Below, piece by piece: positions 183-27,985 of a stretch of DNA of 50,654 bases (position 1 is the first letter of the stretch; each line of letters opens with the position of its first letter). The translations under genes and the position numbers were made by a program. Below the pieces are notes generated by a model. The model was not told the DNA's origin, did no database searches, and saw only the letters and a list, made by a program, of their open reading frames with translations. The stretch comes from Methanobacteriota archaeon (GTDB lineage Archaea; Undinarchaeota; Undinarchaeia; Undinarchaeales; Undinarchaeaceae). The DNA is taken from contig NZBN01000004.1 in the NCBI GenBank assembly GCA_002687935.1, forward strand, positions 1 through 50,654, read 5' to 3'.

Positions 183-533
183 TTGAAAGAAAGCATAACA
201 CAATTTATTGGAACTGATAGAGTTTGTAAAGGATGTGTCACAGTATTTGAACCGGCATCGTGGAACCAATTATATTGTAATAAAATGTGTCGTTTGAATA
301 ATTATTGCCCGCCAACCATAAAATGTAAGGTTTGTGGAAATAAACGAGAGAAATATGGACGCGGGATGTGTAGAAGTTGTTGGAAAAGGAGTTACCTCTT
401 AAAGAAAAATCCAATAAAACAGAAAAAATGTAAAAAATGTAGTAAGACATTTGAAACACGTTTTTCATTTAAGATTTTTTGTTCAAATGAGTGTAAAATT
501 AGATACCATTCGGAAAACCAAAAATCTAAATAA
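183..533 (+). CDS. Cys-rich, basic putative zinc-ribbon protein
   Basis: 116 aa with six CxxC/CxxxC motifs (CKGC, CNKMC, CKVC, CRSC, CKKC, CSNEC); TTG start; AT-rich. Confidence 0.6.
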   Translation: MKESITQFIGTDRVCKGCVTVFEPASWNQLYCNKMCRLNNYCPPTIKCKVCGNKREKYGRGMCRSCWKRSYLLKKNPIKQKKCKKCSKTFETRFSFKIFCSNECKIRYHSENQKSK

Positions 534-606
534 TCCAAGCGCCGAGGATCAGATTCACTTCGTGAATAACCCCTCGTCGCGGGTTAAATAATCCAAGCGC
601 CGAGGA
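527..606 (+). repeat. 22-bp direct repeat of the tRNA-Ser 3' end plus trailer, flanking a 36-bp hairpin insert
   Basis: taaataatccaagcgccgagga at 527-548 and 585-606; insert tcaga-ttcac-ttc-gtgaa-taaccc-ctcgtcgcgggt. Confidence 0.9.
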
Positions 607-681
607 GGGGATTTGAACCCCCAAATCCCGAAGGAAACTGAGTTAGCAACCCAGCGCAATACCAGATTATGCGACCTCGGC
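598..681 (-). tRNA. tRNA-Ser(GCT)
   Basis: Cloverleaf with acceptor GCCGAGG/CCTCGGC, anticodon arm CTGGG-TTGCTAA-CTCAG, long variable arm, TTCAAAT T-loop, G73; CCA not encoded. Confidence 0.95.
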
Positions 682-819
682 TTTGTGTTGACTTCTTCTG
701 AGCCAAGGGTTATGCAGTATCTAATTGCATTGTCTGCATCTGACCTCGGCTTTGTGTTGACTTCTTCTGAGCCGAGGGTTACATAGTAACCAAGTTCAAG
801 GTCTATGTCTGACCTCGGC
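673..819 (-). repeat. Tandem array with 69-bp period upstream of tRNA-Ser: 40-bp repeats separated by 29-bp structured spacers
   Basis: Repeat at 673-712 and 742-781 (one mismatch), partial copy at 811-819; spacers 713-741 and 782-810 are both hairpins with 16-nt loops. Confidence 0.92.
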
Positions 820-885
820 GAACTTATAGCTCTAATCTCTTTCTAAGTTCTAGAAAAAACTAATAGAAAAGCTAGGATATAAAAC

Positions 886-13643: not shown

Positions 13644-13677
13644 AATGAGGCCCTTTTTTGGTGTTGCGTGGGCCAAG

Positions 13678-22748: not shown

Positions 22749-22801
22749 ACAAGTATTCTTTGGGTAGGGGTTACGCGCTTGCGCGTCTGACCACAGGCCC
22801 A
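22737..22801 (-). repeat. 13-bp duplication of the tRNA-Val 5' end flanking a TCAGA...TAACCC hairpin insert
   Basis: gaccacaggccca at 22737-22749 and 22789-22801; minus strand GGGCCTGTGG-TCAGA-CGCGC-AA-GCGCG-TAACCC. Confidence 0.85.
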
Positions 22802-27649: not shown

Positions 27650-27724
27650 AATTATTGTAATTCCTAGATGTATTTAAAGAATTCGATAAAAGCACAAACT
27701 GGGCGCTGAATTTGATAACTTACA

Positions 27725-27818
27725 CCCCGACTGGGACCCAGAAGCACTTTTTTAGAAAAAAAGTTGCACAAAAAACCCCTCGCTTCGCTCGGGAGTAAAC
27801 CAAGCGCCCCGACTGGGA
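27725..27818 (+). repeat. 12-bp duplication of the tRNA-Glu 3' end flanking a 70-bp hairpin insert
   Basis: ccccgactggga at 27725-27736 and 27807-27818; insert shares CCAGA, AACCCCTCG, CGGG and TAAA blocks with the tRNA-Ser 3' insert. Confidence 0.8.
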
Positions 27819-27882: not shown

Positions 27883-27985
27883 TGGGCCAGCCGAGATTTG
27901 AACTCGGGACCTCGCGCTTTCTTAAGCGAGTGTACGAAACGACGCCTTATAAGACGCGCGCTCCACCAGGCTAAGCTACTGGCCC
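27883..27985 (-). tRNA. tRNA-Ile(TAT) with 29-nt intron at 37/38 (27919-27947)
   Basis: Anticodon arm CGCGT-CTTATA|A-GCGCG; perfect BHB (CTTA/TAAG central helix, 3-nt bulges, GGCG/CGCT intron helix). Confidence 0.9.

Follow-up and report, generated by a model that had tools for sequence, protein, structure and literature searches.

Hairpin modules that copy the adjoining gene end lie at the outer edges of tRNA genes in Undinarchaeales

The DNA analyzed here (the window, a 50,654-nt stretch of an Undinarchaeales genome) carries a tRNA-Ser(GCU) gene preceded by two hairpin units that belong to a family of small modules found at gene edges. Each module repeats the end of the gene that it adjoins and points toward that gene, its units have been gained and lost between sister species, and modules have been copied between unrelated genes. 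We hold with moderate confidence that the units are protein-less foldback insertion modules, working at the level of DNA along the outer margins of tRNA genes and sometimes of other genes, and that they serve as no more than a passive leader.

Two hairpin units precede tRNA-Ser(GCU)

The tRNA-Ser(GCU) gene, whose ends are copied in the units, occupies 598..681 of the minus strand and is called by ARAGORN and by Rfam (RF00005, 53.9 bits). Immediately upstream, Pfam identifies genes for EF-2, EF-1alpha and ribosomal protein S10, in agreement with the tuf-rps10-tRNA-Ser context that had been proposed from the sequence. The original prediction also placed two hairpins with a 69-nt period before tRNA-Ser, and these were borne out by the minus-strand sequence, by Tandem Repeats Finder (673-819, period 69, 2.1 copies, score 203) and by pairing compared with shuffles. 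In a repeat search the two 69-nt copies were 81% identical, with mismatches located in the inner hairpin.

Unit 1 (type A) is a 49-nt hairpin at 771..819 on the minus strand, recognized from its sequence and scoring 75 bits with a covariance model of the whole unit (R1) and 44 bits with a model of the type A inner hairpin (R2). It starts with a distal copy of tRNA positions 1-9 (GCCGAGGUC), followed by the junction UCAGA and a 6-bp stem; the 16-nt loop forms three further pairs around an 8-nt loop, and UAAC and the inverted copy CCUCGGC complete the unit. A 20-nt linker at 751..770 (minus strand), which opens with UCAGA as the junction does, separates unit 1 from unit 2 (type B), a 49-nt hairpin at 702..750 on the same strand that has the frame of unit 1 and scores 71 bits with R1. 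The second copy of the linker, at 682..701 (minus strand), lies directly 5′ of the tRNA gene. Aligned with the linkers of the orthologous array in the sister species G001, the linker at 751..770 shows identities of 19/20 and 20/20.

Both hairpins combine a closing stem (GCCGAGG/CCTYGGC), an internal loop (UCAG/AAC), a 6-bp inner stem and a 16-nt loop. The inner stems, ACAUAG/CUAUGU in unit 1 versus AUGCAG/CUGCAU in unit 2, differ wholly in sequence with pairing kept, and the two loops, as first described, are of equal length and unlike sequence. Across the invariant 42 nt of the 69-nt units the sole difference is a C-to-T change, which turns the inverted copy of unit 2 into CCUUGGC. The claim that the stem survives this change is correct: the change leaves one G-U pair in unit 2, and related units show compensatory change.

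A further unit lies on the other side of the gene. Read on the plus strand, the downstream unit (type C, 540..579) runs toward tRNA-Ser(GCU) and has the same frame as the upstream units: the tRNA 3′ end copied as its reverse complement (CGCCGAGGA), TCAGA, the stem TTCAC/GTGAA around a 3-nt loop, TAAC and then, at the inner end, an imperfect inverted copy. Beside it, at 527..539 on the minus strand, the opening 13 nt of the tRNA trailer occur again, as the remnant of a 58-nt downstream period; a repeat search matched 527-555 with 585-613 at 90% identity. The type C unit also occurs behind tRNA-Ser(UGA) in the same genome (G000), and twice in G001. On the rps10 side of the array, the segment at 854..884 (minus strand) contains the TATA-like sequence TTTTATAT at 877-884 and a T6 run at 854-859. 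This segment is kept between G000 and G001 and the 30 nt adjoining unit 1 are not; judged by its motifs, it is a candidate promoter or terminator.

The array does not collapse in other assemblies. Contigs from two later seawater runs, made in different studies, cover 697-840 (144 nt, both units) with 0 differences, contigs from two other public marine runs cover 675-771, and all four runs reproduce the junctions without difference. We conclude that the array is real and not an assembly artifact.

Scored over nine related units, the proposed structure has 93% of its cells paired, and five pairs are changed on both sides. The paired fraction and the covariation score were matched by 0/500 shuffles, the count of doubly changed pairs by 21/500, and slid registers of the same nine-unit alignment paired in 29-41% of cells. 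For the type A inner hairpin alone, 98.9% of cells are paired and 6/9 pairs are changed on both sides; its loop is kept across three families of the order and its stem covaries. Between G000 and G001 the units are 92-96% identical (type A 47/49, type B 45/49) and better kept than the adjoining 30 nt of flank. The conservation of the type A loop, together with the retention of the units above their flank, suggests selection on the hairpin itself, whether for a function or for a need of propagation.

Modules copy a gene end and point toward the gene

From the outside toward the gene, a module consists of a direct copy of the gene end (7-16 nt), a junction, a covarying hairpin, usually an inverted copy of the end, and a linker of 12-31 nt. 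The junction is TCAGA in this genus, with CAAT and others elsewhere. Inserts are 38-60 nt long and gene-free, and module sizes range from 47 to 69 nt. Direct repeats measured 7, 8, 9, 10, 12, 14 and 16 nt, and the end copy overlaps the core by 2-3 nt, TC or TCA being common to it and TCAGA, and CAA to it and CAAT. At tRNA-His the repeat seems to reach into the upstream flank, and the same possibly holds for an ATPase gene described below.

Every unit points toward its adjoining gene. The units at all 11 upstream loci are in sense orientation and those at all seven downstream loci are antisense, with 0 exceptions. The ends of a tRNA gene mirror each other, so that one and the same module reads as sense upstream and as antisense downstream. 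The rule treats both sides of the gene alike and takes no account of the direction of transcription, which argues for a process on DNA.

The units had been described as closed by the tRNA-Ser acceptor stem. As to sequence this description stands, since seven base pairs of acceptor-strand sequence close unit 1 (GCCGAGG/CCTCGGC) and, with one G-U pair, unit 2; as to origin it does not, because the 3′ strand repeats the displaced 5′ end in inverted form. The distinction can be made at the tRNA-Val unit of the sister species G002: its inverted arm reads as the reverse complement of positions 1-10, and the base that faces T6 is A there but G67 in the tRNA. What the inner helix arm mirrors is the displaced gene end and not the other acceptor strand of the tRNA, and the inverted repeat, being target sequence, changes with the neighboring gene. 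The helix is a by-product of the direct and inverted duplication of any adjoining gene end, and for this reason is seen at a protein gene too. This foldback design, with direct and inverted end copies around a gene-pointing hairpin, recurs at many different tRNAs.

Occurrence of the family

The genes adjoined by the family are those for tRNA-Ser, Val, His, Thr, Glu, Cys and Leu and one ATPase gene. An element specific to tRNA-Ser or to leaders is not what we see: units also lie behind tRNAs, in the opposite orientation, and at six other tRNA types and one protein gene. In a census of the window's own genome, 7/38 tRNA genes called by ARAGORN have modules, namely Ser(GCU), Ser(UGA), Val(CAC), Val(GAC), His, Thr(UGU) and Glu(UUC). 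Within the window, the member before tRNA-Val(CAC) (22762..22800, minus strand) combines a copy of tRNA positions 1-12 with TCAGA, the stem CGCGC/GCGCG around a 2-nt loop, TAAC and a decayed inverted copy, and the member behind tRNA-Glu(UUC) (27723..27804, plus strand) closes with 14 nt copied from the tRNA 3′ end, one of them mismatched. On another contig, tRNA-Ser(UGA) has two upstream and two downstream units, among them a near-identical copy of unit 2.

With R1 we found units in 8/13 genomes of the order Undinarchaeales, spanning 5/7 genera, and in 0/4 other genomes of the phylum; these counts outside the window's own genome are lower bounds, the models being built on particular inner hairpins. 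The R1 members adjoin tRNA-Ser, tRNA-Cys, tRNA-Leu and one unidentified RNA. In G001, the orthologous tRNA-Ser(GCU) locus has three units and tRNA-Ser(CGA) has one, closed by its own acceptor sequence GCCGCGA; in G002, tRNA-Ser(UGA) has one unit with a 4-nt inner loop. The type A hairpin adjoins Ser, Cys and Leu tRNAs and also the 5′ end of a V-ATPase G/H-like gene (locus L060, 1416-1559, genome G011, contig C2), where two 72-nt tandem units with this hairpin each repeat the first 12 nt of the reading frame and a Shine-Dalgarno-like leader. In other genera R2 also matches between two protein genes, and the hairpin occurs within larger structured RNAs that have UUCG hairpins.

Several of these loci have features of their own. 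At L054 and L061 (G005) and L063 and L066 (G011), one arm of the larger structured RNA is the type A hairpin, framed as CAAT...AAG, and the UUCG-capped hairpins of that RNA covary between copies. The tRNA-Ser genes behind the units at L035 (G007) and L038 (G003), both of family f2, contain long inserts that are probably introns; ARAGORN calls neither gene, and Rfam finds only that of G003 (35 bits). The unit at L040 (1550-1700, G004:C6) has the closing stem GCTATGG/CCACAGC, and the RNA behind it begins with GCTATGG and was given no identity by ARAGORN or Rfam.

A loose descriptor (CAGA-stem-loop-stem-TAA) had 39 matches versus 18 on the reversed sequence, and the full frame was found only in matches less than 100 nt from a tRNA; the pattern TCAGA-N-TAACC showed no enrichment over control in the genus. 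A scan for the type A loop motif was re-scored with R2 for 80/116 viral stretches and for 80 of at least 120 genome stretches. None of these 80 viral stretches has the full hairpin, and among the 80 genome stretches it was kept only by an Undinarchaeota contig, the other matches to the loop motif being mostly chance.

Sister species differ in their units

Upstream of tRNA-Ser(UGA), G001 has 0 units, G002 has one and G000 has two, and at tRNA-Ser(CGA) G000 has 0 units and G001 has one. At the empty sites (upstream of UGA in G001 and at CGA in G000) the two flanks form a clean join at the first tRNA base. At tRNA-Ser(GCU), the two units of G000 equal the three of G001 minus 61 nt between repeated frames. 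The comparison of orthologous loci that had been proposed shows that unit number varies between congeners, and loop types A and B are each kept between G000 and G001.

Modules have also been copied between unrelated genes. Those of tRNA-Glu(UUC) and of tRNA-Val(GAC), which lies on another contig, have a common 54-nt core at 96% identity; the Glu module retains a Ser-type segment beside its hairpin, and the distal copy at tRNA-Val(GAC) is chimeric. The Val(CAC) and His modules are likewise similar to each other. As a separate observation on the serine genes, tRNA-Ser(UGA) (L003, 1404-1488) has the acceptor sequence GCCGAGG, like its GCU paralogue, and its congeners (L024, L027) have GCCGCGG. 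This shared acceptor, together with a near-identical proximal upstream unit, suggests gene conversion between the two Ser loci.

Transcription and a possible small RNA

The array had been predicted to be transcribed, and we consider it a probable part of the tRNA primary transcript. The genome contains an RNase P RNA (146 bits), and at the CGA and UGA loci a TATA-like box lies ~28-31 nt before the distal copy or, at an empty site, before the first base of the tRNA. Taken together, the RNase P RNA and the placement of the box suggest that upstream units are probably transcribed as a leader and then removed; under our preferred reading this leader would be passive, and RNase P would remove it. 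A TATA box within the linkers was considered and rejected, its spacing to the tRNA start being unsuitable. Downstream, the Val/Glu-type module has T6-T7 runs on the sense strand of the tRNA. Runs of this kind resemble archaeal terminators and so speak against a part for this module in the tRNA transcript.

Would the removed hairpin have a function as RNA? RNase P and tRNase Z would then free a stable hairpin of ~50 nt, whose loop ACCUUnnAAUUGGUUA would bind a protein or an RNA. The presence of RNase P RNA, the covarying stems beneath the conserved type A loop, the retention of the units above the neighboring flank, and the reappearance of the type A hairpin in other genera, both between protein genes and as part of larger structured RNAs, all fit such a small RNA, and of the alternatives to a DNA-level module it survives best. 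We nevertheless consider it unlikely. The downstream units are antisense, so that a tRNA transcript would hold the complement of the loop, and the inner hairpins of other units have neither a common loop sequence nor a common length (2-16 nt). Units come and go between sister species, the closing stem mirrors the displaced end instead of the acceptor stem, and the direct repeat is present at the protein gene as well, where tRNA-processing enzymes play no part.

Other structured RNAs were excluded individually. ARAGORN and Rfam call a tRNA only at 598-681, and the units have no 7-nt anticodon loop (16 nt here and 2-4 nt in relatives), which rejects a tRNA or an armless mini-tRNA. A permuted or split tRNA was set aside, as neither a T-arm nor an anticodon half precedes the copy of the 3′ strand. 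On inspection, UCAG faces AAC as an internal loop without the separating 4-bp helix of a bulge-helix-bulge intron, and inspection of the unit frames likewise ruled out a K-turn. An Rfam scan of 300-1300 at E values up to 10 returned no family for the units; for C/D or H/ACA guide sRNAs it gave only chance-level rows, and there is no RUGAUGA box.

Spread of the modules and the missing enzyme

The preferred reading, a foldback module inserted at the level of DNA, calls for a route of spread. We suggest that the host's own replication and repair would suffice, with no dedicated transposase: copy-choice through 2-3 nt of microhomology, or short-homology repair, could use another module as donor. 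The variable repeat length, the microhomology at the junction and the chimeric copy at tRNA-Val(GAC) agree with copy-choice or short-homology repair, and only poorly with a single transposase. Template switching in imperfect palindromes is a known mutational route, and within the imperfect palindrome of a module it may bring the inverted arm into register with the displaced end. Alternatively, selection may match the inverted arm to that end, so that the spare acceptor strand does not compete with the real one; by either path the foldback would prevent such competition. Against a purely neutral insertion module count the conserved type A loop and the retention of the units above their flank, which would allow the hairpin a protein-binding or self-propagating role, and also the extreme reduction of the genome (0.67 Mb), in which neutral DNA is expected to be rare.

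No gene for a tyrosine recombinase (PF00589), Y1 transposase (PF01797), TnpB (PF07282), Cas1 or reverse transcriptase was found in this genome; as the assembly is 86.6% complete, a mobilizing enzyme may lie in its missing part or come from a host or virus. From such sources a dedicated enzyme of the HUH/Y1 type (IS200/IS605 or RAYT) or of the Xer type would act on the modules. Their strict orientation relative to the target and their copying between unrelated loci would suit such an enzyme, and a hairpin core beside a segment complementary to the flanking target recalls, by analogy, the guide-target pairing of IS608. We rate a dedicated enzyme as quite improbable: besides the missing genes, a single enzyme would be expected to make a target duplication of fixed length or none, where we measured repeats of 7-16 nt with junction microhomology, and none of the 80 re-scored viral stretches with the loop motif contained the full hairpin.

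Regulatory and guide readings

Control of the tRNA in cis, in which spare acceptor strands or a leader-trailer duplex would gate its maturation, is very unlikely. It draws on the frames flanking the tRNA, which are exact complements, and on the minimum free energy fold of the whole locus, which joins GCCGAGGUCAGA of unit 2 to UCUGAUCCUCGGC of the trailer and reaches -106.4 versus -93.8 kcal/mol for the sum of locally folded modules. Many loci, however, are one-sided, with units only upstream at Val(CAC), His, Thr and Ser(CGA) and only downstream at Glu, Val(GAC) and Ser(UGA) of G001, and a leader-trailer duplex therefore cannot be general. Moreover, the same tRNA lacks units in sister species, and each spare strand is already neutralized by its own inverted copy.

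The idea that the array encodes guide or antisense RNAs whose 16-nt loops are hypervariable, raised because the two loops of the window differ at equal length, can be dismissed with near certainty: loop types A and B are each conserved between species (type A across the three families), inner loops run from 16 nt down to 4 nt (tRNA-Ser(UGA) of G002), 3 nt (downstream units) and 2 nt (tRNA-Val), which also contradicts the prior expectation of a conserved loop length, and the rest of the genome offers neither loop a complementary site at ≤2 mismatches, shuffled loops doing as well. A 10-nt loop complement at 497-506 was rejected as a target, being at chance level for a 700-nt AT-rich region. A CRISPR array was likewise rejected, as the variable parts are palindromic and conserved between species, no Cas1 gene was found and no CRISPR repeat family matched.

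Relation to known elements

A full-text literature search found no description of modules of this design. They resemble tRNA-integrating elements in inserting at the end of a tRNA gene and rebuilding it, in leaving a direct repeat on the far side and in stacking in tandem; they differ in being 38-60 nt long and gene-free, without an integrase (PF00589), in using both 5′ and 3′ ends, in mirror orientation, and in their variable 7-16-nt repeat and inverted end copy. Casposons employ the Cas1 casposase and make a 14-15-bp duplication at the tRNA 3′ end. No Cas1 gene was found in the present genome, the duplication varies in length and 5′ ends are used too.

With REP, REPIN and BIME sequences and their RAYT enzymes, and with IS200/IS605 elements, the modules have in common that they are short, gene-free hairpin repeats, that the hairpin is apparently a conserved recognition feature and that the segment beside it complements the flanking target. 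Neither a Y1/HUH transposase nor TnpB was found here, and the targets are gene ends instead of a fixed tetranucleotide. IS200/IS605 elements make no target duplication; their complementary segment also differs from the one seen here, which is 7-10 nt long and lies 3′ of the hairpin. Like MITEs, Correia, RPE and ERIC elements, the modules are small, non-coding, strongly folded, multi-copy and variable between close relatives. MITEs, by contrast, have terminal inverted repeats of their own and a duplication of fixed length, whereas the inverted repeat of the modules derives from the target and their duplication varies from 7 to 16 nt.

Two comparisons concern RNA. Non-canonical and possibly mobile tRNA introns are known from Thermoproteales and DPANN archaea. 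Introns and other disrupted forms of archaeal tRNA genes are the subject of a review (PMC4033280). Like bulge-helix-bulge introns, the modules are small and structured and are inserted in the tRNA genes of lineages rich in introns, and in principle excision between the repeat copies would restore the tRNA; unlike introns, the units lie outside the mature tRNA, are antisense when downstream, and occur beside a protein gene. Acceptor-stem minihelices, tRNA-snoRNA (C/D) dicistrons and mascRNA likewise stack a 7-bp acceptor-like helix on a second helix beside a tRNA, and by analogy cleavage by RNase P and tRNase Z is conceivable for the modules too. The modules have no T-arm mimic and no C/D or H/ACA boxes, and an RNA-processing scheme does not account for the orientation rule or for the protein-gene case.

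We regard the units as a variant of small non-autonomous repeat elements, with a substantial chance that they form a class of their own. More tentatively, and with well below even expectation, they may represent a self-propagating class of DNA, in which the hairpin homes from either side to the edges of stable-RNA genes and duplicates the gene end in direct and inverted form, enzyme-free or by means of an unknown enzyme, or the type A hairpin may be a protein-binding RNA module that the cell adds to pre-tRNAs and other transcripts. If the DNA-level reading is right, tRNA gene edges in reduced archaeal genomes would be remodeled by miniature insertions that fit none of the MITE, REP, integrase and casposon families tested. 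The modules would account for odd leaders and trailers, tandem repeats and tRNA-fragment calls near DPANN tRNA genes, and would mark very recent genome change between sister species. They raise the question of how a direct and an inverted copy of the target can be made without a recognizable enzyme, and their mirror placement on the two sides of the gene offers a simple rule to check across genome collections. For annotation, the labels tRNA pseudogene, CRISPR-like array and guide RNA should be avoided for these units.

Neighboring tRNA genes

Several observations on other tRNA genes were made along with this analysis. An intron-containing tRNA at 27883-27985 (minus strand), 3 nt upstream of tRNA-Glu(UUC), is missed by ARAGORN and scores 52.7 bits with the Rfam tRNA model; with the anticodon loop CUUAUA and an insert of ~30 nt after position 37, it is probably tRNA-Ile(UAU). 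The trailers of the Asp GUC (13664-13676), Glu UUC (27800-27804) and Ser GCU (593-597) tRNAs all start with CTTGG right after the discriminator base, and that of Ser UGA on contig C10 has the variant CTTGA. Finally, the leaders of tRNA-Thr(UGU) (L104, G000:C2 ~129070-129105) and tRNA-Asn (G000:C7 ~99625-99650) have a 14-nt motif, GGGCTAAATAGGCA, in common.
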